Assembly (NCBI GenBank): GCA_007376145.1
Contig: VMFP01000004.1
Span: forward strand, 6,988-70,987
Direction: 5' to 3'
DNA from: Parcubacteria group bacterium Gr01-1014_38
GTDB taxonomy: Bacteria > Patescibacteriota > Andersenbacteria > UBA10190 > CAIZMI01
Length of the DNA stretch: 64,000 bases
Part shown: positions 1 through 37,069 of the stretch, piece after piece
How positions within the stretch are numbered: the stretch's first letter is position 1
Layout of the letters: each line of letters starts with the position of its first letter
The notes under the pieces: generated by a model
Database searches by the model: none
Seen by the model: only the letters and a program-made list of their open reading frames with translations
Told to the model about the DNA's origin: nothing
Program-made: the position numbers and the translations under genes

Positions 1-1308
1 ATAGTTGGTAACCCGCCCTTCATTCGATATCAATACCTCCCAAAGGATTTTCAGCAAAGAGCAGAGGAAGTTTTTGAAAATTTGGATTTACCATTTACGA
101 AACATGCCAACGCTTGGGTACCTTTTGTTTTAGCTTCTATGGCTCTACTGCGCCCCGGTGGTCGTCTCGCAATGGTAGTGCCAGCCGAGATTATGCATAT
201 CACGCATGCTCAACCCCTAAGGTCTTATTTAGGAAAAGAATGCCGCAGACTAGTAATCGTTGATCCGGAGGAACTTTGGTTTAGCGATACACTTCAAGGC
301 GCTGTTCTTCTTCTTGCTGAAAAAAAAGGTAGTCCCGCAGACAAAGCGGAAGGTGTTGGTATTTACCCAGTTAAGCAAAAAGAATTTCTCAATACTGATC
401 CTGAAATTATTTTCTCTGCTCCTAAATCATTAAATGGCAGAACGATCGCTGGAAAATGGACTTATGCACTCTTGGATCGCTCTGCCCGTTCTTTGTTGGA
501 TAACCTATCTAAACATCCGAATGTGCATCATTTTAAGGATATTGCAGAAGTAGATGTTGGGATTGTTACAGGTGCAAATAACTATTTTCTCGTCTCCGAT
601 GAAACTGTGGAGGAATTCGGCTTATCAAAATGGGCTCATCCTATGTTCGGACGAAGCAAGCACTGCCCTGGAGTTATTTATGACGAGTATCAACACCGAA
701 TGAATAAAGAGGAGGGCAAGCCAGCAAATTTTATTTGGTTTTCGGATGATTCTGTGAGTAGATACGTTTCCGCTCAAAAATATATAGACTACGGAGAGGA
801 ACAAAATCTTCATACACGATATAAATGCCGAGTTCGTGATCCTTGGTATTCAGTCCCCTCCGTCTACACTACGGAAATCGGGATGCTCAAAAGATCGCAC
901 GATGCGCCAAGACTCATACTCAATAAAATTGGAGCTTTTACTACTGATACGGCTTACCGAATTAGTGCTCACGGCGTGGCTAATAAGCGCCTAGTGGGAT
1001 CTTTTATTAACTCTTTAACGGCACTAAGCGCTGAACTCGAGGGACGTCATTATGGAGGTGGAGTATTAGAGTTAGTGCCGTCCGAAATTGAGAAACTACT
1101 CATCCCATTACCGGAATTAGCAGTGAATCTTACAGAACTGGACAAGGATGTTAAAACTTTACCGATGGTGGATGTTTTAGAGCAACAGGATAAGAAAATT
1201 TTAAGCAGCTTAGGGCTGACAAAATCTGAGCAGAATCTACTAGTAAATAACTGGCAAAGACTCCACGACAGACGCCAGAGGGTTTCGAGCGATTCCGAAA
1301 TCGCTTAG
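1..1308 (+). CDS. N6-adenine DNA methyltransferase (gamma-class, Eco57I/TaqI-like), 5' partial at window edge
   Basis: Reading frame is open from nt 1 and translates IVGNPPF (motif IV NPPF) followed by about 430 aa consistent with a target-recognition region. Codon usage is AT-rich relative to the rest of the window. The 3' end overlaps the convergent PLD nuclease gene by 4 nt. Confidence 0.7.
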   Translation: MVGNPPFIRYQYLPKDFQQRAEEVFENLDLPFTKHANAWVPFVLASMALLRPGGRLAMVVPAEIMHITHAQPLRSYLGKECRRLVIVDPEELWFSDTLQGAVLLLAEKKGSPADKAEGVGIYPVKQKEFLNTDPEIIFSAPKSLNGRTIAGKWTYALLDRSARSLLDNLSKHPNVHHFKDIAEVDVGIVTGANNYFLVSDETVEEFGLSKWAHPMFGRSKHCPGVIYDEYQHRMNKEEGKPANFIWFSDDSVSRYVSAQKYIDYGEEQNLHTRYKCRVRDPWYSVPSVYTTEIGMLKRSHDAPRLILNKIGAFTTDTAYRISAHGVANKRLVGSFINSLTALSAELEGRHYGGGVLELVPSEIEKLLIPLPELAVNLTELDKDVKTLPMVDVLEQQDKKILSSLGLTKSEQNLLVNNWQRLHDRRQRVSSDSEIA

Positions 1309-2477
1309 TCAATCTCCAGTACAAATCGTCCCTGATCCGCCTCATCTCTATAGAGGGACAAGGTACGTCCGATCAAATCTGGACGTGAGACGTATTCGCG
1401 TATAGGACCCCAACTCAAGCGCGTCATAGCGTTTCGTTGCTGATATGTACGACTGTTCGTATCGGTGCTATGCCTAATTTGTAGTGGAAACTCTCCGTAA
1501 TATATTCCTTTGATAATTAACTGAAAACGAGCCTCCGCTTCCTCCACGCTAACCGTTGCGCGAGGGGTCCACTGAAGGTGGGCAAAAGCTGCATCGCGAA
1601 AGTAGTGTCTGTGATCTATCGCTTCATCTAAAAGACCTTTATCTAGGTTTATAGAACCAGTTGCGTGCGTGCCTCTCTCATGAGGAATATTAAGATCTCG
1701 CTCTGTTAAGGCCTTGCTTTGCCAGACAAGCTCAAGATTGGTTGCGGCTTGGGTTTGAGGTTGTCCTTGGGGAACGTGGCCAACAGCTCGGCGGATTACT
1801 GGTTCTGATCGTGCACGCCGTGACGCACGAGATAGTGGTATAACATCAAGCCGAATGCGTGAAATCGGGTCATTGGAGGGCCTTGATGCGGTAACCGCGG
1901 GGCGTGGAGGCAGAGTTTCCGCCTCGTCGAGTAGGCGGCCACTGTTTTGTAATCTATCCAGCTCTAATGCACCTCGAATTATGAAAATATGTTCAGGATA
2001 TCTTCCGGGTAATTCGGTAAACTGCTCCTGAATTTCGCTGACGAATTCGCGATCGGATTGTTCATCTAGATTCAAATCGAGAGCCAAACTAGCCTCGATG
2101 TTATTGTTCAGCCCGCCGAGGGTTAGATTAGCACTGCCAACAAGCAAGCGTGCGTGTTGCGCACCTCTTGATAAATATAGCTTCGGATGAAAAATAACAC
2201 CCCGCGCTCCAGTATCTACAACGTAAACTGAAACTCCCAGTTCTAATAATCGAGCGAGTCCTTGGCGAGAGGTTATATCATTTCGTATGCCCGAGAAAAC
2301 TTTTGTTTTTGATGCGAAAGGGCGCAGATTATTTTCAATAAGACGTACCCCGTCTTCGTTTATAAAAGCAACACTAAGAACAATCTCCTCAATATCTGGA
2401 ATCTCAATTACGTGTCTGATAGCATCAATGTGATTCCGAGTTGTAAATCCCTGAAAAATAAAATCTTTACTCGCCAT
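1305..2477 (-). CDS. PLD/HKD-family nuclease, putative restriction endonuclease (BfiI/NgoAVII-like) with extra C-terminal domain
   Basis: HKD motif 'IFHPKLYLSRGAQHARLLVGSANLT' (HxK...GSxN). Most plausible start is the ATG at 2477..2475 (MASKDFIFQG); the track ORF extends further 5' into rpsI. AT-rich like the MTase. The start lies 9 nt downstream of the rpsI stop. Confidence 0.65.
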   Translation of the reverse strand: MASKDFIFQGFTTRNHIDAIRHVIEIPDIEEIVLSVAFINEDGVRLIENNLRPFASKTKVFSGIRNDITSRQGLARLLELGVSVYVVDTGARGVIFHPKLYLSRGAQHARLLVGSANLTLGGLNNNIEASLALDLNLDEQSDREFVSEIQEQFTELPGRYPEHIFIIRGALELDRLQNSGRLLDEAETLPPRPAVTASRPSNDPISRIRLDVIPLSRASRRARSEPVIRRAVGHVPQGQPQTQAATNLELVWQSKALTERDLNIPHERGTHATGSINLDKGLLDEAIDHRHYFRDAAFAHLQWTPRATVSVEEAEARFQLIIKGIYYGEFPLQIRHSTDTNSRTYQQRNAMTRLSWGPIREYVSRPDLIGRTLSLYRDEADQGRFVLEID

Positions 2478-2485
2478 GCTATCGT

Positions 2486-2914
2486 TTACCGCTTCTGCCA
2501 CTGTGGCGCCCGGCGGGCGCGCTTGAGTCCAGGCTTTTTGCGTTCCTTTTCTCGCGGGTCGCGGGTGAGCATGTCGGTGTCGCGCAGCGGTTTGCGGAAG
2601 CCTTCTTCCTGCTTTTCGAGCGCACGGGCGATGCCGAGCTTCACGGCACCAGCCTGCGCGTGAATCCCTCCGCCGCTTACCCGTACCGACACATCGAATT
2701 TTCCCCAACTGCCGGTGATCTCAAACGGCTGGCGGACGGGAGTTTGGAGTGCGACGATCGGGAAATACTCCTCCCACGGTCGCTGATTAATAAGGAAGGT
2801 CGTGGCGTCCTTGTCCTTGCCGCCACCCAAACTTCCTGCCGGGAGGAGACGCACCCGAGCGACGGCGGTTTTCCGTCTCCCCACGCCTTCAACGTACCGA
2901 GCTTGGTCAGGCAT
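2486..2914 (-). CDS. rpsI: 30S ribosomal protein S9
   Basis: Translation ends ...KKPGLKRARRAPQWQKR, which matches the S9 family along its full length. Confidence 0.95.
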   Translation of the reverse strand: MPDQARYVEGVGRRKTAVARVRLLPAGSLGGGKDKDATTFLINQRPWEEYFPIVALQTPVRQPFEITGSWGKFDVSVRVSGGGIHAQAGAVKLGIARALEKQEEGFRKPLRDTDMLTRDPREKERKKPGLKRARRAPQWQKR

Positions 2915-6620: not shown

Positions 6621-6845
6621 TTAGGAGCGTGCGTCGAGACGCTGGATGATTCTCCCGCGCGTGAGATCGTAGGGGGAGAGTTCGACGGTCACCCGGTCAC
6701 CGGGAAGGACTCGAATGCGGTGCACCCGCATGCGCCCGGAGATGTGCGCCAGCACTTCGTGTCCTCCCTCCGCTTCGACTCGGAACGTCGCGTTGGGAAG
6801 ATTCTCTTTCACGACCCCAGTCAGTTGGATCGTGTCCTTCGCCAC
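6621..6845 (-). CDS. infA: translation initiation factor IF-1
   Basis: [40 protein letters not shown]… S1-like IF-1. Confidence 0.95.
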
Positions 6846-7017
6846 AACAGAACGTTCAGAACGTTAGAAACTCCTGCGGAGAAGCCCGCAGCACTTCCTG
6901 GGGTGGTACTTGGAAGTAGACCGACAGGAACATGCCCAAGTGCGTGCGGAGCAGGATCACAGACGCGTTAGGATAGAGCATACGAAAGTCGGAAAGCGCT
7001 GTCAAGAGCAACGGTGA

Positions 7018-8526
7018 TCACGGTTGGGTTGCCACGTCGATGTGGATATTCCGGCGAAGCGAGGGAATGCGCTTGATCCAGACCGGCGAGAGACGAACCT
7101 CTGCGGTGCGCACGCCGGGAATCGCGCGGAGGAACGCGGCAGCATCATCCGCGGTTCTGCCTTGGAGCCGCTCACGCAGCTCATCGAAGTTGAGACGCGG
7201 GATCAGCGGGGTTTCTGAATGGAGCGAGAACTCGGTTCTCCCGTGGTCCCAGCGCACGTCGACGACCCGAAGGTCCTCAAAGGAGCTTTTCCGGACCGGA
7301 TCTTTCTCGTTCCCGATTCGCTGCTGAAGCAGATCGGTCAGAAATGCCTGGAGCGACGCAGCATCCGCGGTGAACGCCTCGCCGCGAACCGTGGTCCGAA
7401 TTCGGAAGGACTCTGCATCGGTCCCGACGGGGGGAGAGATTTCCGCCTCGCCAACGACCACGCGAGAAAGCTCCGGGCGCGAAAAGGACACCTGCTCCTG
7501 CCTCGAATGGGGCGTGGGCGCGGTACGCGCCTCACGTTGTATGAGTTCCAGGAGTTTGCGCTCGGCGTTCTCGCGAAGTGCGGTGGTACCCCGCTCAACG
7601 TCTGTGGTCGCGAGCTGGCGCACCAGCCGGTCAGTTCCGCCGTGCAGCGGACGCACGATTTCCCCGTAGAGAAGTCGACGGGATTCTGCCGGAAGCGCGG
7701 GTATGACGAGCCGCTGCGGGTCAAGATTTGCCTTGCTGCCTCCCTCCTCCGCCCGCACGGCAACCGACGCACGGCCCAAGGCTGGAACAATGACGTCGCG
7801 CTGCGTACGCACCACCACCCCCGACGTGCCCTGGAGCCGCGTGCGTGCTTTGATCCCCTGCTGGGCCGCCGTCTGGTTCACGATGTCGACCACGCCCTCG
7901 GCACGCGCTCCTTTCTCGACGGTGGTGTGAACGGGGAATTCCTCTTCGACTGCTTCCTCGATGCGGAGGAGGCGCGCGGGGTGTGTTCCGGTATCGCGTT
8001 GAGGTTCGCGCACACTCGCATCCAGTCGCAGGGTGAGATCAGCCGCAAATGGCTCGGTCGCGAGGACGAGACGGACGCGTGCCCGCGGCACCACGAACGT
8101 CACGACGCCGGTGAGAAGCATACCAGTGAGAACTGCGAAGACCGCCAGGGTCGCACGACCCCTCGGCGTCACGATGGGAAACCGCCGCCAGGGGAGCAAA
8201 GGGAGTTCACGGGGTCCTCCGGGGAGCAGGCGCCGCCTCCGGAAACTGGAAGAACCCGCCCGCTCCCGCGGCCCACGCTGATCAGCGCTGACCGTGGCGT
8301 GCCGTACTGCACGGTCAGCGAGCTGAAAGGTAATGTCCTTTCCAAAGTCTGCAGCGGTCGCTTGGAGGAGTCGGCGGACCAGCGGATCCGCCCGCAGAAC
8401 GGGATGTTGCCGGCAGTCGATTACGACGTGCGGGGCGGGAACTCGTTGGATCTTCTCCAGGATATCCGGCAGATCATCCGAGGCGGGGATGCGTAAGACG
8501 GGTGCCGTGCTCTGACTACTTGGCAT
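7018..8526 (-). CDS. hypothetical protein with a single transmembrane helix and a large C-terminal domain (possibly PilN/PilO-like)
   Basis: Long ORF with one hydrophobic helix (LAVFAVLTGMLLTGVVTFVV). The track ORF (to 8658) overlaps the upstream gene by about 140 nt; the internal ATG at 8526 was chosen to minimise overlap, so the start is uncertain. Confidence 0.4.
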   Translation of the reverse strand: MPSSQSTAPVLRIPASDDLPDILEKIQRVPAPHVVIDCRQHPVLRADPLVRRLLQATAADFGKDITFQLADRAVRHATVSADQRGPRERAGSSSFRRRRLLPGGPRELPLLPWRRFPIVTPRGRATLAVFAVLTGMLLTGVVTFVVPRARVRLVLATEPFAADLTLRLDASVREPQRDTGTHPARLLRIEEAVEEEFPVHTTVEKGARAEGVVDIVNQTAAQQGIKARTRLQGTSGVVVRTQRDVIVPALGRASVAVRAEEGGSKANLDPQRLVIPALPAESRRLLYGEIVRPLHGGTDRLVRQLATTDVERGTTALRENAERKLLELIQREARTAPTPHSRQEQVSFSRPELSRVVVGEAEISPPVGTDAESFRIRTTVRGEAFTADAASLQAFLTDLLQQRIGNEKDPVRKSSFEDLRVVDVRWDHGRTEFSLHSETPLIPRLNFDELRERLQGRTADDAAAFLRAIPGVRTAEVRLSPVWIKRIPSLRRNIHIDVATQP

Positions 8527-9709
8527 GCCACCGCAACTGGCGTTCCTGGATGGGTTGGTATACAGCGGAAGCAGCGGGTGCATGCTCGAGTCTCCGGAGC
8601 GCAATGTCGGCAAGCTGCTCGAGGAGCGCGAAAATTGTCGCCGGGATGCGCGCGGCAATCAGGCGTGACGGATCCACCGGAGTCATCACTGGGCGCGGCA
8701 AGAGCTGAACGATGCGCGGCGCTCTCGAGAGGTACAGCGTTGGATTCCGATGGAAGAAGAGTCGGTGAAGGAGCGTCGGCCAGAACCCGGCAACCACCAG
8801 TCGCACTGGCCACTCCGAGTCCGGAAGATGCGCAAAGAAGAGTCGAACGATGGTCCGAAAGAGGGGAAAGAGCGGACGAAAGACCCGGACAAGGATCCGC
8901 ACTCCCTCCGGCGAGAGCACGCTCGCGTCAGCGCGCTCGAGCAACGTGGCCGCTTCGCGCGGTGAACAGGACAGGGCGCGCACGAGCGTTCCGACGAGAA
9001 GATCACTTCCGAGCGGCGCGGTCCGCAACATCCGCAGAATGTCGCCGTCTCGTACCACAAACGTCAGATGGGACTCTTCGCTGACAAGCAAGCCAATCGG
9101 TTCGGACGTCTTTTGGAAGATTTCGCCTAAAAACACGGGGAGGAGCACCAGGTCACAGACTGGCACATCCGGCGGCGGCAAGGATTGGAACCGCGCCGGC
9201 GTTGGCGGAACGAGAAGGGATTCACCGAAGGCCGTCGGCCCTTGGAAGAGGGTGGTGACGGTCGCTTCAAGACCGTCACCACCGCGCGCTTCCTGCCAGG
9301 GACGTACCTCTTCCCGGAAGACCGCGAGATCTTCCAGCGGGCACCCAAAAAACTCTGCAGCTTCCTCGCGGAGTTGCTCCCGCGCGTGCCAGTGGGCTTG
9401 AAGCGTCAGCTCCCGAAGGTCCAGTGCGGTTCGCCCGGTGCCGGGAAGCGCGCGACCAATCGTGACGGAACCTCCCGCCAGTGCTGGCGTCGGCACAGCC
9501 AGAACGAGCGGTTCATGTGCGTGCCAGCCGAGGAGACGTTCCAGTGGCTCTCCGAGCGCCGCACCGGATTCCCAGGGAATCGTGGCGGCAGCCAGCAGCC
9601 GATGCTGACCGTCTCGACGTTCGACCCGAAGGAGATCAAGCTCTTCTCCCCGGGTACGCCCGACGACCACGCGGTGCTCACGTTTCGTTTTCGGAGAGAA
9701 CGGGGACAT
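8516..9709 (-). CDS. hypothetical protein (possibly PilM/actin-like ATPase fold)
   Basis: 397-aa ORF whose N-terminus (VVVGRTRGEELDLLRVERRDG..HRLLAAATIP) loosely resembles PilM/FtsA-type N-termini. No firm motif was recognised. Confidence 0.45.
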   Translation of the reverse strand: MSPFSPKTKREHRVVVGRTRGEELDLLRVERRDGQHRLLAAATIPWESGAALGEPLERLLGWHAHEPLVLAVPTPALAGGSVTIGRALPGTGRTALDLRELTLQAHWHAREQLREEAAEFFGCPLEDLAVFREEVRPWQEARGGDGLEATVTTLFQGPTAFGESLLVPPTPARFQSLPPPDVPVCDLVLLPVFLGEIFQKTSEPIGLLVSEESHLTFVVRDGDILRMLRTAPLGSDLLVGTLVRALSCSPREAATLLERADASVLSPEGVRILVRVFRPLFPLFRTIVRLFFAHLPDSEWPVRLVVAGFWPTLLHRLFFHRNPTLYLSRAPRIVQLLPRPVMTPVDPSRLIAARIPATIFALLEQLADIALRRLEHAPAASAVYQPIQERQLRWHAK

Positions 9710-9747
9710 ACCAACGTTTCTCGTCTTCGCGCTGGAGCGTTAAACGT

Positions 9748-11520
9748 TCACTCAACCACCGCGCGAATGCGACGAATGCCTTGGGCCAGGCCCTCCTCTT
9801 TCGTAATGTGAAAGCGCCCGATCACCCCTGTCCGCGGGACGTGGGGACCGCCACAAATCTCTTTCGAGAAATCACCGACCGTGTACACGCTCACCTGATC
9901 GCCGTACTTCTCTTCGAAAAAACCTAATGCGCCGGCAGCTTTCGCTTCCTCCGGCGTCATGACTGCGCGCGTCACGGGAAGATCTCGGCGAATCTCCTTG
10001 TTCACGAGGTCCTCTACTTTGCGGATTTCCTCGGTGGAGAGCTTCCTCGGATGGGAGAAATCAAACCGGAGCCGCTCGGGTGTAATGTTCGACCCCTTCT
10101 GCTCGACGTGCGGCCCGAGGATGCGTCGGAGTGCCTCATGGAGGAGATGGGTGGCGGTGTGCATGCGCACCGTCCGCTCGGAGTGGTCCGTAAGACCGCC
10201 AGCAAACCGCTGGGTCATGCCCGCGCGGGAGACTTGCTGGTGCTTCTGGAACTCCTCCTCAAAACCTTTGAAGTCTACCGTCACGTCCTGGGACGCACCG
10301 AGTGACCGAAGAAGATCCGGATGAATGCCGCTCTCTTGATAAATCGCGAACGCCTCTGCCCCAGAGATCCGTGTGTCACCGCGCCCCCGTACCTGTTCGA
10401 TAAACTTCCCAGCCCGCTGTTCGATAACGATGTATTTTTGGAGCTCGCCCCAGAGCTGGGTCTCCGCTTGGCTTTTGCGCTCGAAAATCTCCGGGTAGGC
10501 CTCGCCATAAATACGCGCAAGTTCGTCAACAAACCGATTACCAATATCCAGAAGGTGATGTTCTTCTGCTCCTTGGAGACGGAGAGACCGCAAGGCACGG
10601 CGGATGAGTCGCCGGAGGACATAGCCCTGTTCGACATTGCTGGGGACGATTTCGTGCGGATCGCTCAAGACGAAGACGGCGGCGCGGAGATGATCGGCAG
10701 CAATCCGGAGATGCCTCTCATCGGCACGCGGCACGCTCCCCCGAATGAGCTCCATGAGCGGGGCGAACACGTCCGTTTCGTACACGTTTGTATGACCGCA
10801 CAGAACTGCCACCGCGCGCTCCAGCCCCATGCCGGTATCCACGTTCTTCTGTTGTAGAGGAGCGAAGGTACCGTCGGAGCGCTTCTCGTATTCCATGAAG
10901 ACATCGTTCCAAATCTCAACAAAGCGTCCGGAGTCGTCGTTCGGGCGCGTGGATGCTGGCCCTCGACCAGTATCGAAGAATATTTCCGTGTCCGGACCGC
11001 AGGGACCCGCCTTCCCGGGCGGCCCCCACCAGTTCGCGCTCTTCCCAAAGAAGAACATTCGGTCTTTAGGGATTCCGAGCCGTTCCCAGATGCGCGCGGA
11101 CTCGGTATCGCGTGGCGCGTCGGCGTCACCGGCAAAGCAGGTCACCGCGAGCTTCTCCGCTGGGAGCGAGAGCCACCGATCGGAGGTCAGAAACTCAAAA
11201 CTCATTTCAATCGCTTCCTTCTTGAAATAATCACCGAGCGACCAGTTCCCGAGCATTTCAAAGAACGTCAGGTGGAAGGCATCACCAACCTCGTCAATGT
11301 CGCCCGTCCGGAGGCACTTCTGCACGTTCGCGAGTCGCTTTCCCTGCGGATGGGGTTGTCCGAGTAGATACGGCACGAGCGGCTGCATACCGGCGGCGGT
11401 AAAAAGAACAGTGGGATCGTTCTCCGGAACCAGCGATGCGGACGGAAGAATGGCGTGCCCGCGCTCGCGGAAGAATTCCAAGAACCGTTCGCGGAGCTGC
11501 GTGCTCGTGATTGCGCACAT
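9748..11520 (-). CDS. alaS: alanine--tRNA ligase, compact form lacking the C-Ala domain
   Basis: Class II catalytic core plus editing-domain zinc motifs (HTATHLLH … CGGPHV). Ends at 590 aa. Confidence 0.95.
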   Translation of the reverse strand: MCAITSTQLRERFLEFFRERGHAILPSASLVPENDPTVLFTAAGMQPLVPYLLGQPHPQGKRLANVQKCLRTGDIDEVGDAFHLTFFEMLGNWSLGDYFKKEAIEMSFEFLTSDRWLSLPAEKLAVTCFAGDADAPRDTESARIWERLGIPKDRMFFFGKSANWWGPPGKAGPCGPDTEIFFDTGRGPASTRPNDDSGRFVEIWNDVFMEYEKRSDGTFAPLQQKNVDTGMGLERAVAVLCGHTNVYETDVFAPLMELIRGSVPRADERHLRIAADHLRAAVFVLSDPHEIVPSNVEQGYVLRRLIRRALRSLRLQGAEEHHLLDIGNRFVDELARIYGEAYPEIFERKSQAETQLWGELQKYIVIEQRAGKFIEQVRGRGDTRISGAEAFAIYQESGIHPDLLRSLGASQDVTVDFKGFEEEFQKHQQVSRAGMTQRFAGGLTDHSERTVRMHTATHLLHEALRRILGPHVEQKGSNITPERLRFDFSHPRKLSTEEIRKVEDLVNKEIRRDLPVTRAVMTPEEAKAAGALGFFEEKYGDQVSVYTVGDFSKEICGGPHVPRTGVIGRFHITKEEGLAQGIRRIRAVVE

Positions 11521-32101: not shown

Positions 32102-33198
32102 GCGCCTGCTTTTTCAATCACCTCGGCAGTCTGTTCCGCCGCTCGGTCCCACGTGAAGTGAGACGCGCGTACGTGCCCCTTCGCAACCATGTCCTGCCGG
32201 AGTGAGGAATCGCGGAGAATACGGAGGATCGCGCTCGCCATCGCCGACGGATCCGAGGGATCAACAAGAACCGCCGCATTGCCGACAACCTCTGGAAGCG
32301 AGGAAGTGTTCGAAGTAATCACCGGCGTTCCGGCCGCCATTGCTTCTAACACTGGCATACCGAAGCCCTCCGAGAAACTCGGGAGCACAAAGGCAGCAGC
32401 CATGGAGTACAAAGCTGCAAGATCGTCACGTGGAACACGTCGGAGAAGATGAATCGAATTTCGAACGGACGACGTTTCAATCCGAGCGAGAATCTGTGTT
32501 TCTTTCCACTCCCCGCCACCCGCGAAGACGAGATGCACGGCAGGCTCCGAGCGCTTCAGTTCCTCGAACGCAGTGATGAGACCAACAATGTTTTTCCGGG
32601 GTTGGAGCGCCCCAACAAACAACACATATCGCTCAGGAAGCTGGTATCGCTCCCGAATCCCTTCCCTTTCCTCGGCATTCTGAAATTGCTCTTGCGCCAC
32701 TCCGTGATGCACCACGGTGATGTCGGTCGGGGAGCGTCCATACGTACTCACTACATCGTCCTTCGTGTACTGCGAGACGGCGATGAGCTGGGTCGCGTTT
32801 CGCACCGCGTGCCGCGTGAAAAAAAGGAGGAGTGCGCGGTTCGCAAGAGTGTATGTCGCTGGATAATGGATGAACTCGAGATCATGGACCACCGCGACCG
32901 TCTTCATCGTTCGCGGTCGTATGAGAGGCAGCATCTGAATCGGCATGAACAAGACATCCGGCCGATCGCGACGAAGTGCTGCGGCAAAGAATCGCTGCGT
33001 CCAAAACGGACTTCCCGGGACCACACGAATTTCACCTACGATCGTCACTCCACGTGGCGACGCTGGAAGATATGTCGTGACCTCGTGTCCGCGGTCGCGC
33101 AACAGGCGAGAAAGCCGCGGGAGAAGCTCTCCGGCATACACGCTCGGCCCCTCGAAGCGGTCCGCCGCGAGGTCCGAGCCATCAAGCGCAATCCGCAC
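32098..33198 (-). CDS. glycosyltransferase family 4
   Basis: GT4 C-terminal motifs (…PSFSEGFGMPVLEAMAAGTPVITS…). Likely start is GTG at 33198 (VRIALDGSDL…, the typical GT4 MRIALD start); the track's TTG at 33276 is upstream. Confidence 0.8.
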   Translation of the reverse strand: MRIALDGSDLAADRFEGPSVYAGELLPRLSRLLRDRGHEVTTYLPASPRGVTIVGEIRVVPGSPFWTQRFFAAALRRDRPDVLFMPIQMLPLIRPRTMKTVAVVHDLEFIHYPATYTLANRALLLFFTRHAVRNATQLIAVSQYTKDDVVSTYGRSPTDITVVHHGVAQEQFQNAEEREGIRERYQLPERYVLFVGALQPRKNIVGLITAFEELKRSEPAVHLVFAGGGEWKETQILARIETSSVRNSIHLLRRVPRDDLAALYSMAAAFVLPSFSEGFGMPVLEAMAAGTPVITSNTSSLPEVVGNAAVLVDPSDPSAMASAILRILRDSSLRQDMVAKGHVRASHFTWDRAAEQTAEVIEKAGA

Positions 33199-33217
33199 GC
33201 GACGCAGCCTAGGTGAG
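33179..33217. repeat. direct repeat copy 1 (GT4 start region: CCATCAAGCGCAATCCGCACGCGA-N2-NAGCCTAGGNGAG)
   Basis: 39-nt segment spanning the GT4 GTG start; it recurs at 34051-34089 (3 mismatches), and its 21-nt core recurs at 35676-35696. Confidence 0.85.
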
Positions 33218-33320
33218 TTTCTTCCTTTTGACAACGGCTCTATGTGTTGAATGGGTTGAACGGGCCGAGCAACCAATTGACAAAATCCTGTCCGGCAGAT
33301 ATACTGAAAGCACTAAACGT

Positions 33321-33356
33321 GGGGCGGATATTTCGCATGTCCGCCCCGTTTTTATT
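33321..33356 (-). terminator. rho-independent terminator immediately after the NYN stop codon (bidirectional-looking)
   Basis: GGGGCGGA-N11-TCCGCCCC stem (33321-33328 / 33340-33347), flanked by an A-tract upstream and TTTTTATTT downstream on the plus strand. Confidence 0.6.
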
Positions 33357-33987
33357 TCTTGGGCTCCTCGAACCTTAAGGCTTTTTCGAGCCGAACAAAG
33401 TCTCGGAAGTTCGCACCAGCAAATTTGCGGATCTCACGTGCAGTCCTAGAACCACGTGCGAGAATAATGATTTCCTCTCTTTCCTCACGAAGATACTTAA
33501 GGACCGGAAGGAAATCTCCGTCCCCCGAGAGAATAACGGCACGATCAAAATTTTCTTTCTCTTTCATAAGCCGGAAGGCCATATCGACGTCACAATTCGC
33601 TTTGCGTTTCGTGCTGCCGTCGTCCTGGTCGTACAACTTCACGGGTTTTAAGTAGAGCTCGTACCCGAAGCTCTGGAGCTTTCGGTAAAAGCGCACTCGC
33701 TGGAGATGTCGCCCAAGAAGGAGTAATTCCGCCTCGTTGAGTTCTTTGCCTTCGTTCTTAATACGCTCAGTGAGATAGTCTTCCAAGTCTTCAAGCGGTA
33801 CCGACTCAAACGCAAGGTAATCAAACGGAAACGTGTGAATCTCAACCCCACCAAAATACAGCGCGCGGGTTACCCCGTACTTCTTGCGCAGGTACTGCAG
33901 AAGTTTTCGATAATCAATTTTCCAACCAAGACTCTTCTCGCCTCCATAGAAGAGGTTTGATGCATCGATAAACGCAAGTGTTCTCAC
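33352..33987 (-). CDS. NYN-domain (LabA-like, PIN-fold) ribonuclease
   Basis: AFIDASNL…CDVDMA…ILSGDGDF acidic motifs of the NYN family. GTG start at 33987 overlaps the stop of the upstream short ORF (GTGA). AT-rich codon usage. Confidence 0.8.
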   Translation of the reverse strand: MRTLAFIDASNLFYGGEKSLGWKIDYRKLLQYLRKKYGVTRALYFGGVEIHTFPFDYLAFESVPLEDLEDYLTERIKNEGKELNEAELLLLGRHLQRVRFYRKLQSFGYELYLKPVKLYDQDDGSTKRKANCDVDMAFRLMKEKENFDRAVILSGDGDFLPVLKYLREEREEIIILARGSRTAREIRKFAGANFRDFVRLEKALRFEEPKK

Positions 33988-34050
33988 GCCGAGAAGTGTA
34001 ACATTGCTTTGTATTTCGCGTGTGCTATGCCCGCTTCCCTAGATTGCAAC

Positions 34051-34089
34051 CCATCAAGCGCAATCCGCACGCGAGGTAGCCTAGGCGAG
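34051..34089. repeat. direct repeat copy 2 (GT4 start region)
   Basis: Matches copy 1 at 36 of 39 nt. Its in-frame GTG opens a 28-codon ORF (VRIALDGLQSREAGIAHAKYKAMLHFSA*) that is translationally coupled to the NYN gene. Confidence 0.85.
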
Positions 34090-34208
34090 GCTTGCTCTGT
34101 TGGCAACCGACGATCTTGACGTGGGCAGTCCTGCAATATATCCTCGGCGTGGTGTTGTCCTTTCTCACGCCGCAACAAGCGCGGCATAGTTCTCACGGAG
34201 TATGTCAC

Positions 34209-35171
34209 ATGCCTGACCCAAGCACGCAGCGACCACCACACCCTCTCCTAACCCGAGAACTGCGTCTGATCCGGACCTGGAAGGAGTGGAAAAAACTCTG
34301 GGACGAGGAGGTGCATCCGGAACGCCTGCTCGGCCTTCTCCACTTCGGCTTCAATGTCACAGAGTTTGACGCAGGAGAGTGGCCTGAACGAGTTCTCCTC
34401 TACCTTTCCATCGCAGATGGACATGCGTGGGAAATCTCGAAGCCAGGAACGCAGAAATATGAAATCTCCTGGTCAACCTTCGGAAAACCCACGACATGGT
34501 CAAAGGTGCGTCAGCTGATCGCCCAAAAAGCGTTCAAGGAACTCTGTCAGCACCTCTTCAAATACACCCGGTCGCATCATGATGAAGAACCGTCCTGGCT
34601 TCAGCCACTCACCCAGAACTCCTGCCAACTCTTGGATGCGGTACTCGCGTTCTTCCTCCTGCATGACACGCTCGAACCTCAGCTACGCAATCTCCCGCGA
34701 GACGACAAGAGTCATGAGTACGGACTGACCGTCTCCTTCCTCCTCAGCCTGTGTGACTTCGGATGGAAGCTTCGCACGCTCCGCGAGTATGGAGCCGATA
34801 TAGAAGTCGCGGAGAACCTCCGACAGCGCCGTCCGCAGTTCATTCGCGTACTTGCAGGTCTCAAAAGGCTCGATCTCGTGACGACGAAGAGCATGGAACT
34901 CGACGAGGCGGACTGCGACATGCTACGGAAGATCGCACTCGGCACGGAGCTCTACCTCCCCACCGAGCCGAACTGGGGAGAGAAGCACCGGCTTCCAAAA
35001 ACGCTGGAAGAAGCGGTCGCCGGCGGATCTTCTGCAGCCAGACTCCTACTCCTGCATAAGATAAAACTCCAGGAGAAAGCCCGCTTTGCGCAGCTTCGAA
35101 AACTCGCAGCCACGCAGGAAGATGCTTCTCTACAGATCGAACGACTAAAAACTTCGCAGACAAAGTCCTAA
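34209..35171 (+). CDS. hypothetical protein (320 aa), no recognisable domain
   Basis: ATG at 34209 preceded by GGAG. The frame is open from TTG 34092, which would add a hydrophobic N-terminus. Followed by a terminator. Confidence 0.55.
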   Translation: MPDPSTQRPPHPLLTRELRLIRTWKEWKKLWDEEVHPERLLGLLHFGFNVTEFDAGEWPERVLLYLSIADGHAWEISKPGTQKYEISWSTFGKPTTWSKVRQLIAQKAFKELCQHLFKYTRSHHDEEPSWLQPLTQNSCQLLDAVLAFFLLHDTLEPQLRNLPRDDKSHEYGLTVSFLLSLCDFGWKLRTLREYGADIEVAENLRQRRPQFIRVLAGLKRLDLVTTKSMELDEADCDMLRKIALGTELYLPTEPNWGEKHRLPKTLEEAVAGGSSAARLLLLHKIKLQEKARFAQLRKLAATQEDASLQIERLKTSQTKS

Positions 35172-35194
35172 ATGGAGGCACAAATGCAAATGCT

Positions 35195-35222
35195 CCCCGC
35201 CGCAATCGCGACGGGGTTTTTT
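35195..35222 (+). terminator. rho-independent terminator of the 320-aa gene
   Basis: CCCCGCCGC-AATC-GCGACGGGG followed by TTTTTT. Confidence 0.6.
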
Positions 35223-35257
35223 CTTCTCATCGTTGCAATCCTCTGCCCCCCAAAACA

Positions 35258-35297
35258 CGAGTACAAAAGAAACCGCCGCGAGGAAATCCTCGCGGCG
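35258..35297 (-). terminator. rho-independent terminator of the 96-aa minus-strand gene
   Basis: Perfect 10-bp stem CGCCGCGAGG-AAAT-CCTCGCGGCG, with a U-tract on the minus-strand RNA (plus-strand AAAAGAAA at 35264-35271). Confidence 0.55.
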
Positions 35298-35304
35298 TGG
35301 GGGT

Positions 35305-35595
35305 TCACGATTTGGGAAGTCTGACAATACGATTCCCCGCAATCACCCATGGGCTCGGGTCGAAGCGAACAACAAACGACGGGACGGGAGGCCAGGCGCG
35401 AGCAGGATCTTCTTCGATGACTGTCCCGGCAAAGTCCTGCTCGCACTCTTTCTCAACAACATGGGCACTCACCATTCGTATTCCCTTCTCCCCGTGAGGA
35501 TAGATGGCCCCAATCACCCATCCTTCCAGGAGAAGCTCGACGATAGGGGTGCCCGGGAGCACAGAGCGCTCCGCGATTCGGAAATCAATAGGCAT
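35305..35595 (-). CDS. hypothetical protein (96 aa)
   Basis: ORF flanked by a terminator and preceded by repeat copy 3 about 80 nt upstream. Confidence 0.4.
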   Translation of the reverse strand: MPIDFRIAERSVLPGTPIVELLLEGWVIGAIYPHGEKGIRMVSAHVVEKECEQDFAGTVIEEDPARAWPPVPSFVVRFDPSPWVIAGNRIVRLPKS

Positions 35596-35675
35596 CAGTC
35601 TCTCCTTTCAGTGTCTTTCGTTCTGGGGATCGAAGGTGAAATGAACAAGCTACACAAGACGCTCAAAAATCCGAA

Positions 35676-35696
35676 CCATCAAGCGCAATCCGCACG
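35676..35696. repeat. direct repeat copy 3 (21-nt core CCATCAAGCGCAATCCGCACG)
   Basis: Exact 21-nt match to the cores of copies 1 and 2. Encodes a mini-ORF VRIALDGSDF* on the minus strand. Confidence 0.8.
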
Positions 35697-35780
35697 GGCA
35701 CACTCTACGCAGAGCAGCCGTTCCTGACAAGGCACAGGAGAAGATGAAATATTCCTTCCGGCAATTCCTCATTTCCAAGA

Positions 35781-35804
35781 AAAGTGCTTTCATATAAGAG
35801 AGCA
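35781..35804. repeat. palindromic repeat A (AAAGTGCTTTCATATAAGAGAGCA) containing the TrpR-like GTG start
   Basis: Imperfect palindrome TGCTTTCAT/AAGAGAGCA. Matches 36211-36234 at 21 of 24 nt. Confidence 0.8.
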
Positions 35805-36206
35805 GTGAGCAGAACTTACCGAAGAAAACTTGATGCACCACGCGCTCTCACACTGATTGAGCAAACGTTCCACACGGCCTCCCGTCAGAAGAATTTTCGG
35901 CGCTTTCTTACGGAGTTCTTTACCGTGAACGAGCGCGACACTTTTGCTCAACGCCTCCGTATCGCCTGGTTTCTTCATGCGGGCCACAGCTTCCGACTTA
36001 TTCAAGACGAAACGGGTGCCTCGTTTCGTACCATTACGACTCTCGACCGCTGGCTGAAAAAGCAGAATCCGCGCTACCGGCGGATCATTCCGCTCCACAG
36101 ACATAGACACCGAAAGCACGCCGCCCAACGTTTTCCAGGAGACCGGCCATTGCCCGGGAGCATCAAAGCATTCACACGGAGTCTCCTCGGCACGGATATT
36201 CTCTAA
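35784..36206 (+). CDS. TrpR/YerC-YecD-like helix-turn-helix regulator
   Basis: …NERDTFAQRLRIAWFLHAGHSFRLIQDETGASFRTITTLDRWLKK… fits the TrpR-like HTH fold. GTG start lies inside the palindromic repeat. Confidence 0.55.
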   Translation: MLSYKRAVSRTYRRKLDAPRALTLIEQTFHTASRQKNFRRFLTEFFTVNERDTFAQRLRIAWFLHAGHSFRLIQDETGASFRTITTLDRWLKKQNPRYRRIIPLHRHRHRKHAAQRFPGDRPLPGSIKAFTRSLLGTDIL

Positions 36207-36210
36207 ATTC

Positions 36211-36234
36211 AAAGTGCTCTCTTACAAGAGAGCA
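36211..36234. repeat. palindromic repeat B (AAAGTGCTCTCTTACAAGAGAGCA)
   Basis: Perfect 9-bp arms TGCTCTCTT-AC-AAGAGAGCA. Re-encodes VLSYKRA, the first 7 codons of the TrpR-like gene. Confidence 0.8.
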
Positions 36235-36274
36235 CATTCAAGTTTTCTAATTCACGCTACGACCGTCGGGATCG

Positions 36275-37069
36275 CTATTTCCACGCCAGGATGGCCCGGA
36301 CGCTTCTTTCGTCTTTGAGCTTTCCGTTTGGGCTAAGTCCGCGTAGCATCCTCGCTAGTTCCTTTTCAAATATCTTTATCCTGTCTCCGAATAACTCTCT
36401 GCGAGCAAATGATGTGGAGTAGAGATTACCAATGATCTGGTGAATGTTCCGCTCCACGCGCTGTTTATAATTGTGAGTTTCAATCTTCGAAAACGAGCAT
36501 TCCATGATGATGTCCTCAAACCGACGTGTATCAGTGGGAAACGTCCCCGTGCCCGCACGGCGCTCCTCTCCGAGATACGTCTTAACGAGTTTCACGATTC
36601 CTTGCTGCCAGTCCTTATCGCTCTTCCAGATATCCTGGCGGCTCACCACCGCAAGTCCGCCACCCGGCATGAGAAGTTCATAAACCTTTGCAAGAACCTT
36701 TTTCTTCTCCATCCAATGGAGCGCGGTGCCGATCGTCACGAGTCTGAACGAGCCAGGACGGTCTACGTACTCCTCCGCCGTGCTCTTCACCCATGAGATA
36801 TCCCTCGCGCCCGCTTTCGCGGCGCGCTGCTTCCCCTCCTCGATCATATCCGCATCGGGCTCAACTGCCACCACTTCCTCAAAGTCCCTGCACAGCAGCA
36901 CGGCGAGTTCTCCCGTTCCCGTTCCTAAGTCGAGGAGTCGGCCAGTGCCGTCCAGGGAAAATTTCTTTCTGAGCAATTCAAAGAAGCTCTGTGGATACGG
37001 TACTCGATAACGGGCATAGTACCAGGCTGCCCCTCTGAAGAGTGTCTCGTCGTATACGCTCGTGCTCAT
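36275..37069 (-). CDS. class I SAM-dependent methyltransferase
   Basis: Motif I LDLGTGTGELAV and Methyltransf_11-like core. Confidence 0.85.
   Translation of the reverse strand: MSTSVYDETLFRGAAWYYARYRVPYPQSFFELLRKKFSLDGTGRLLDLGTGTGELAVLLCRDFEEVVAVEPDADMIEEGKQRAAKAGARDISWVKSTAEEYVDRPGSFRLVTIGTALHWMEKKKVLAKVYELLMPGGGLAVVSRQDIWKSDKDWQQGIVKLVKTYLGEERRAGTGTFPTDTRRFEDIIMECSFSKIETHNYKQRVERNIHQIIGNLYSTSFARRELFGDRIKIFEKELARMLRGLSPNGKLKDERSVRAILAWK

Follow-up and report, generated by a model that had tools for sequence, protein, structure and literature searches.

The left end of a 64,000-nucleotide stretch of contig VMFP01000004.1 (positions 6,988 to 70,987) from Parcubacteria group bacterium Gr01-1014_38, hereafter the window, carries two convergent genes, one for a DNA methyltransferase (MTase) that runs off the window edge and one for a nuclease of the phospholipase D (PLD) superfamily. 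The G+C content over positions 1 to 2477 is 0.446 compared with 0.607 for the remaining window (1-kb windows, mean 0.607, standard deviation 0.031), and the four 1-kb windows of this island, with z scores of -4.3 to -5.7, have the lowest G+C content of the window. The G+C content at third codon positions is 0.356 for the MTase gene and 0.377 for the PLD gene, versus 0.69 to 0.72 for rpsI (0.69), rplM, rplQ, rpoA, and rpsD. The original prediction, made from the sequence alone, had noted that the first 2.5 kb or so are AT-richer than the rest, and this anomaly is genuine and well past chance.

We examined a piece of the 245.5-kb source contig (L001) that runs opposite to the window and takes in another 10 kb beyond its left edge. 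The low-G+C stretch extends from L001 position 10001 to approximately 12860 (2.86 kb), and the G+C content is back to 0.57 to 0.61 inside lexA. The island therefore comprises exactly two genes, and the right-hand 2,477 bp of this cassette of about 2.86 kb fall in the window. The MTase gene lies 53 nt downstream of lexA in the same orientation, and the ATG of the PLD gene starts 8 nt after the rpsI stop codon (2486 to 2488), with the host cluster rpsM-rpsK-rpsD-rpoA-rplQ-rplM-rpsI on the strand of the PLD gene; the module is appended directly to the ribosomal operon, as had been proposed. The stop codons of the two cassette genes share 4 nt (TTAG, 1305 to 1308). The ribosomal-protein operon and lexA converge, and the cassette occupies the space between their 3' ends; lexA encodes a LexA-type repressor identified by the Pfam domains LexA_DNA_bind and Peptidase_S24. 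To the left of the island, 10 kb of L001 hold lexA, two glycosyltransferase genes, a DUF4012 gene, murJ, and lepA. The upstream partner genes suspected beyond the window edge did not materialize, as the leftward 10 kb consist of lexA and housekeeping genes.

The MTase reading frame (frame 1) opens the window with the motif IVGNPPF and has 435 codons before its stop codon at 1306 to 1308. The full-length protein has 545 amino acids (aa) (L001 11170 to 12807), and its gene begins 330 nt to the left of the window edge. The Pfam matches of the window part were M_Eco57I_C (2e-90), Eco57I (2e-9), and N6_Mtase (3e-5), and those of the full-length protein were M_Eco57I_C (PF22837, 4e-90 at aa 258 to 526), N6_Mtase (2e-16), and Eco57I (2e-13). 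The window part also matched the PADLOC model MTase_II (PDLC03267) at 1.4e-156 over profile positions 110 to 537 of 539. Motif I (EPSCGDG, aa 40 to 46) lies upstream of motif IV (NPPF, aa 114 to 117), which is the gamma-class order. Judged by these motifs and domains, the protein is an M.Eco57I-type gamma-class N6-adenine DNA methyltransferase; Pfam and PADLOC agree with the earlier assignment of a gamma-class N6-adenine MTase with IVGNPPF at the edge. It falls with DNA MTases and not with housekeeping rRNA or protein MTases, no family of which was competitive as a match, and no PglX or DrmMI model was among the 25 PADLOC families listed for it. The very long region after motif IV that had been pointed out is present, but its suggested likeness to PglX is not borne out: because of the M_Eco57I_C match, it is a standard M.Eco57I-type recognition domain rather than a PglX-like extension. 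Homologues bear generic names ("N-6 DNA methylase" and "putative modification methylase"), and their source annotations name no characterized REBASE relative or recognition sequence; strains of Burkholderia ambifaria and Sphingobium jiangsuense are among the carriers of the MTase.

The nuclease comprises 390 aa, from the ATG at 2477 to a stop codon at 1305 to 1307 on the minus strand; the gene and its convergence on the MTase gene are as originally described, but the length of 391 aa given then counts the stop codon. The start agrees with the N termini of 54 homologues. Residues 70 to 155 match Pfam PLDc_2 (4e-7; 30.4 bits, cut-off 27), and the top sequence match in the PDB was the restriction endonuclease BfiI (2c1l, 2e-6). 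There is one HxK motif per chain, and residues H97, K99, N117, and E128 align with BfiI H105, K107, N125, and E136, which have been described as catalytic (PMC4081073). All four are unchanged in the 55 sequences of the homologue alignment. The nuclease is listed as a "hypothetical protein" in the source genome. It has more than 1,341 full-length homologues, whose database names are limited to "phospholipase D family protein" and "HKD family nuclease," and a tblastn search of the phage record collection with the nuclease gave no match. The AlphaFold2 model of the whole protein has a predicted local distance difference test score (pLDDT) of 80. The best full-chain fold match of this model was BfiI (1.1e-9, both domains aligned), followed by SauUSI and R.NgoAVII and then by Nuc, NucT, and Zucchini-type single-HKD nucleases; other PLD-fold proteins match the model with similar or weaker scores. 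Its PLD domain groups with these single-HKD dimeric nucleases ahead of lipid synthases, and the enzyme, by analogy with its closest match, is probably metal independent and of the BfiI type.

The homologue alignment divides the nuclease into a conserved N-terminal domain (aa 1 to approximately 185), a linker of variable length (aa 186 to 245, approximately), and a C-terminal domain of about 145 aa. The linker is rich in proline, alanine, and basic residues, and residues 191 to 241 have pLDDT values below 50 and are predicted to be disordered by AlphaFold2. It nevertheless keeps a conserved PPRP...D...R-I-x-L patch despite its length variation, with P190, P191, P193, D203, R207, and L210 near-invariant. 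These residues might form a docking or autoinhibitory element, a role that the BfiI linker is said to have.

The extra C-terminal domain noticed in the original prediction is genuine and is the best-conserved part of the nuclease, with 60 to 74% identity versus 50 to 60% for the PLD domain over six loci. Pfam gave no match to it even at E ≤ 10, and a profile built from 24 sequences of the domain gave only chance matches (E > 1) against all PDB sequences, so that it is identifiable from the predicted fold alone. The fold-match figures were 8.8 and 8.6 for EcoRII-N, 8.7 for DNA-bound BfiI-C, 8.0 for RAV1, 7.3 for VRN1, 7.1 for both UbaLAI-B3 and NgoAVII-B3, 7.0 for LlaJI.R1-N, and 4.4 for ARF1. 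We therefore describe the nuclease, from its domain order and fold matches, as having a PLD + linker + B3 architecture, in which the C-terminal domain is modeled as a B3-like DNA-binding pseudobarrel and presumed to be the recognition module. The profile of this domain retrieved 697 cluster representatives (clusters at 50% identity) at E ≤ 1e-3. Among the best 150 matches, the domain lies mostly at the C terminus of a protein of 340 to 430 aa; the shorter matches are likewise C-terminal, and some of them may be fragments.

The Lysinibacillus capsici plasmid pFN9A encodes a stand-alone protein of 144 aa (L037 5001 to 5435, plus strand) that is 41% identical to the B3-like domain of the nuclease. 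Divergent from it lies a gene for a 549-aa MTase (L037 3226 to 4875, minus strand) that is 37% identical to the window MTase, and a 1,004-aa "DNA methyltransferase" is also encoded nearby. This arrangement is either a decayed system or a case of the B3 domain being used alone.

We read seven loci around nuclease homologues, including the window contig (Table 1). At all seven loci, the nuclease gene converges on a gene for an M.Eco57I-type MTase of 544 to 551 aa, and the two ends overlap by 4 nt. The genes flanking the pair differ and are unrelated between the loci, and no helicase, SNF2, DUF1998, PglZ, or BrxC gene was found beside the pair at any of the seven. The MTases are 60 to 69% identical over six loci, and their M_Eco57I_C recognition domains are 57 to 69% identical. 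With the nuclease B3 domains at 60 to 74%, both recognition modules are therefore conserved together, which suggests that specificity may be shared across the family. Indirect support for the pairing comes from 26 identical "longest contig" values common to the top-120 match lists of the two proteins. At one locus, the pair lies in a metagenomic prophage between the large terminase and portal genes, in a moron-like position; such a prophage is a plausible vehicle for spreading the pair.

Table 1. Features of the cassette in the window and occurrences of the same gene pair at other loci
Sequence	Feature	Position	Strand	Basis or context
Window	3' 1.3 kb of MTase gene (C-terminal 435 aa and stop codon)	1..1308	+	Translation, Pfam, PADLOC
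Window	MTase motif IV, IVGNPPF	1..21	+	Direct reading
Window	M_Eco57I_C target-recognition domain (aa 258-526 of full MTase)	442..1248	+	Pfam PF22837
Window	PLD + B3-like putative restriction endonuclease, 390 aa, protein P0001	1305..2477	-	Open reading frame, homologues, fold
Window	PLD-superfamily nuclease domain (aa 1-185), single HxK	1923..2477	-	Pfam PLDc_2, BfiI alignment
Window	Codons of predicted catalytic H97-P98-K99	2181..2189	-	cttcggatg, reverse complement CAT CCG AAG
Window	Linker (aa 186-245)	1743..1922	-	pLDDT, homologue alignment
Window	C-terminal B3-like pseudobarrel (aa 246-390), presumed sequence-recognition module	1308..1742	-	Predicted fold
Window	8-nt spacer, rpsI stop codon to PLD ATG; right border of low-G+C island	2478..2485	-	
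Window	rpsI, last host gene of the cluster (context, not cargo)	2486..2914	-	Pfam Ribosomal_S9
L003	Pair			Betaproteobacteria metagenome-assembled genome
L004, L005	Pair	8001-10777		Candidate division Kazan genome
L006, L007	Pair between large terminase (GpA) and portal genes	L006 8001-10816		Prophage (L006, JGI Ga0484001_0000004)
L008	Pair beside integrase and Mrr nuclease			Patescibacteria genome
L009	Pair adjoining a DndB-family gene			JGI contig
L036	Pair			16.5-kb plasmid pBS5-3-2 of cultured Yoonia sp. BS5-3
L003	Small open reading frame near MTase start	10837-11079	-	
L006	Small open reading frame near MTase start	10813-11010	-	
L009	Small open reading frame near MTase start	8871-9077	-	
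L036	Small open reading frame near MTase start	6929-7075	-	

Four of the seven loci have a small open reading frame (48 to 80 aa) just upstream of, or overlapping, the MTase start. These four align weakly with one another, and the L009 copy matches Pfam RHH_1, which suggests a ribbon-helix-helix protein that may be an analogue of a controller protein. The window island has no such reading frame, and lexA holds that position. The Kazan pair is likewise near the ribosomal cluster, approximately 3.4 kb downstream of rpsI and cooriented with the genes secE, nusG, rpmG, and rmuC that precede it.

The gap between lexA and rpsI was compared in relatives of the host. The closest genome relative (L010), whose proteins are 70 to 88% identical, has the order GT2, GT1 (glycosyltransferases), ..., lexA, [X], rpsI, rplM, rplQ, rpoA, in which slot X (6633 to 7211, plus strand) holds a single low-G+C gene for a 192-aa DUF4145 protein instead of the gene pair. 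A metagenome relative (L050; LexA 85% and RpsI 73% identical) has an empty slot (L050 382 to 464): a 77-nt spacer, GC-rich and with a GAAGAG/CTCTTC hairpin, separates the stop codons of lexA and rpsI. In a third sequence (L061, 1 to 6130), just the last 43 LexA residues are in common (98% identical), and the genes downstream of lexA are unrelated and include an IS1595 transposase gene. The lexA/rpsI gap is a variable slot in this lineage of the candidate phyla radiation (CPR), and the empty or alternative slot, the contrast in composition, and the spread across phyla together indicate that the pair is acquired cargo in that slot. The closest relative also has a lower-G+C insert of 2.7 kb with three genes between a glycosyltransferase gene and lexA (L010 3204 to 5832), where the window contig has 84 nt; by eye, its reading frames look like an ABC-transporter permease, a binding protein, and an ATPase.

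Taken together, we regard it as very likely that the two genes make up a BfiI-like Type II restriction-modification (R-M) cassette that is self-contained and was acquired horizontally. This supports the original proposal, in which a gamma-class N6-adenine MTase and a BfiI/NgoAVII-type PLD nuclease form an acquired R-M system, and we sharpen it to the BfiI type because of the PLD + linker + B3-like architecture and because no ATPase partner was found at the seven loci. The mechanism of BfiI (PMC4081073) serves as the model for how the nuclease would work. A single HxK motif per chain would point to a homodimer, which by analogy would form through the PLD domains and bring two HxK motifs into one composite active site. 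The B3 domains would bind the recognition sites. Cleavage of unmethylated DNA would need neither Mg2+ nor an ATPase partner, would pass through a covalent phospho-histidine intermediate, and would probably occur some way off the site. The host would be protected by a monomeric MTase with its own C-terminal recognition domain. M.Eco57I methylates both strands via the degenerate specificity CTNNAG (PMC3874165), and from this we infer that one gamma-class MTase could modify both strands of a target that is palindromic or degenerate-palindromic, at an adenine in each.

Since the PLD gene starts 8 nt after rpsI and the MTase gene 53 nt after lexA, each on the strand of its upstream gene, partial read-through expression may occur. 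The nuclease gene is also cooriented with its upstream gene at six of the seven loci. No terminator was found between rpsI and the PLD gene, and none was found at the convergent junction. Given the 8-nt gap and the lack of the hairpin seen at the empty site, transcription of the ribosomal operon probably runs into the nuclease gene. The MTase gene may likewise be read through from lexA, so that the two transcripts would converge without an intergenic terminator.

BfiI/BmrI (Type IIS, ACTGGG 5/4; PDB 2c1l and 3zi5) is the closest known system. Both have a PLD domain with a single HxK at the N terminus and a B3-like pseudobarrel at the C terminus, joined by a linker; the catalytic H, K, N, and E residues are in register, and the restriction protein stands alone, without an ATPase and with its MTase encoded alongside, here by gene context at seven of seven loci. 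Several points nevertheless weigh against the assignment. Sequence similarity to BfiI is limited to approximately 75 residues around the HxK motif, and the C-terminal domain resembles BfiI-C solely in predicted fold (12% identity, no hidden Markov model match). The linker is longer than in BfiI (approximately 55 aa, 51 residues of which are predicted to be disordered) and variable. The class of MTase also differs: here there is one gamma-class N6-adenine MTase of the M.Eco57I type, whereas BfiI is reportedly accompanied by two N4-cytosine MTases, in the account of Sapranauskas et al. from 2000. Architecture is the basis for everything said here of activity, metal independence, dimerization, recognition sequence, and cleavage position. 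No promoter stood out, as the scan gave 4 sites versus 4.2 expected, none of them usefully placed, though the sigma-70 consensus may not fit CPR bacteria. Nor is the island marked by an integrase or by terminal repeats or a target duplication; the search of its borders for terminal direct or inverted repeats and a target-site duplication gave short, chance-level repeats only. Finally, the genome is partial, and an unlinked ATPase partner is possible.

Other known systems resemble the pair in part. M.Eco57I is alike by Pfam architecture, with an N6_Mtase/Eco57I catalytic domain followed by M_Eco57I_C, and 545 aa is the size of a monomer; a single M.Eco57I-type enzyme can protect both strands of a site (PMC3874165). 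Unlike in the M.Eco57I system, the partner here is a PLD + B3 nuclease and not a Type IIG R-M-S fusion. In EcoRII-N, UbaLAI-B3, LlaJI.R1-N, and the plant B3 factors, the B3 domain is fused to PD-(D/E)XK nucleases or transcription factor modules, unlike here, and in these proteins it is often N-terminal.

The alternative that survives best, although we consider it unlikely, is that the PLD + B3 protein is a site-specific nickase, an inactive DNA-binding remnant, or an addiction toxin, with the MTase as antidote or as an orphan epigenetic enzyme. Family members are uncharacterized and bear generic database names only; the stand-alone B3-like protein beside an MTase homologue on the Lysinibacillus plasmid indicates that the DNA-binding domain can exist without the nuclease; and R-M systems generally behave as addiction modules. 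However, the catalytic tetrad does not vary, and more than 1,300 homologues retain both domains at full length. Strict pairing with the MTase, overlapping stop codons, and joint conservation of the recognition domains are what marks a functional R-M pair. Addiction behavior itself is compatible with the BfiI-like R-M cassette and is not an alternative to it.

We consider it still less probable that the nuclease belongs to an ATP-dependent enzyme of the NgoAVII/CglI type whose ATPase subunit is encoded elsewhere in the genome. R.NgoAVII, R.CglI, NgoFVII, and AspCNI share the PLD + B3 restriction protein, and fold comparison of the full chain and of the B3 domain alike gave good matches to this group; enzymes of the NgoAVII/CglI type are complexes of the restriction protein with a helicase-like N/H ATPase subunit (PMC4267654, PMC5737866). 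In contrast, no N/H ATPase gene or other ATPase or helicase gene adjoins the pair at the seven loci, including the 16.5-kb plasmid and the prophage moron slot, where the pair stands alone. The Pfam model RE_NgoFVII matched the nuclease below its cut-off of 23.8 bits, and BfiI is the better match in both sequence and fold.

The original prediction had also weighed the pairing of a PLD-family protein with an N6-adenine MTase as that of DrmC and DrmMI, with partners possibly beyond the left edge; on this reading, the genes would be a fragment or minimal form of DISARM, or of BREX with the MTase as PglX. The long MTase C terminus is superficially PglX-like, and there are weak DrmC matches in PADLOC and NCBIfam (1.2e-4; 19.3 bits). 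The DrmC equivalog cut-off is 133 bits, however, and neither the 10 kb to the left nor the six other loci hold SNF2/DrmA, DUF1998/DrmB, PglZ, BrxC, or BrxL; DrmD, DrmE, BrxA, and BrxB genes are not present either, and the genes to the right of the pair are housekeeping ones. The MTase, at 545 aa versus approximately 1,200 aa for PglX, matches a Type II MTase model end to end (1e-156), and the low-G+C island stops at the MTase start. On the basis of the extended contig and the PADLOC and NCBIfam scores, we rejected this reading as highly improbable. An assembly chimera or binning artifact, for which the abrupt G+C step at both borders and the metagenomic source of the assembly might speak, is hardly credible either: the junctions lie exactly at gene ends, 8 and 53 nt from host stop codons, and within the same 245-kb contig the island has host-type sequence to its left and right. 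Another run, assembled independently by Logan (L002, 1,721 nt), encodes an identical PLD protein with cut genes on either side, and relatives show the slot empty or with other low-G+C cargo.

Elsewhere in the window, the region from 33000 to 37000 has the second lowest G+C content (0.51 to 0.53, z scores of about -2.4 to -3.2) and encodes an NYN-domain protein, a Trp-repressor-like protein, a class I SAM methyltransferase, and two open reading frames with no Pfam match. At 7018 to 8526 (L001 3952 to 5460), a few genes upstream of the ribosomal cluster, a gene for a 502-aa protein with a weak match to Baseplate_J (phage baseplate) adjoins one for a 397-aa protein with no Pfam match. An Rfam scan of the whole window found no family at its gathering score.

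To our knowledge, no restriction endonucleases other than the BfiI-type enzymes are known to cleave DNA independently of metal ions, and few members of the BfiI type have been characterized. The AT-rich anomaly is explained here as an ordinary mobile R-M cassette and not as a new type of defense system; the kind of system is already known, and what is new is an uncharacterized, widespread family. This family has the BfiI architecture and is much larger, with more than 1,300 close homologues and a DNA-binding domain for which Pfam has no model. Its MTase is of another kind than that of BfiI, and its members span very distant phyla, including the small genomes of CPR bacteria. A 2014 review counted "over 40 putative" PLD-type enzymes of unknown organization in REBASE (PMC4081073), and a further family of PLD restriction enzymes is therefore to be expected rather than surprising. 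The plasmid pair of Yoonia sp. BS5-3 offers a cultured source for enzymology and possibly a new specificity.

The cassette is of interest for three reasons: its family is large and phylogenetically broad, its B3-like domain is unannotated, and it occupies a slot at the end of a ribosomal operon whose cargo differs between relatives. A more far-reaching reading, which we put forward as a speculative and improbable one, takes several propositions together. The pair would define a very large, uncharacterized clade of metal-independent BfiI-like enzymes (approximately 700 clusters at 50% identity) that occurs in CPR bacteria, Proteobacteria, plasmids, and prophages. It might bring a new recognition specificity, and its long, partly conserved linker could give an unusual cleavage reach or autoinhibition. 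In this CPR genome, transcription would join the nuclease gene to the ribosomal-protein operon and the methylase gene to lexA. If this were so, the lexA/rpsI gap would be a recurrent landing pad for defense cargo in the lineage, and the balance between restriction and modification would track growth rate and SOS state.

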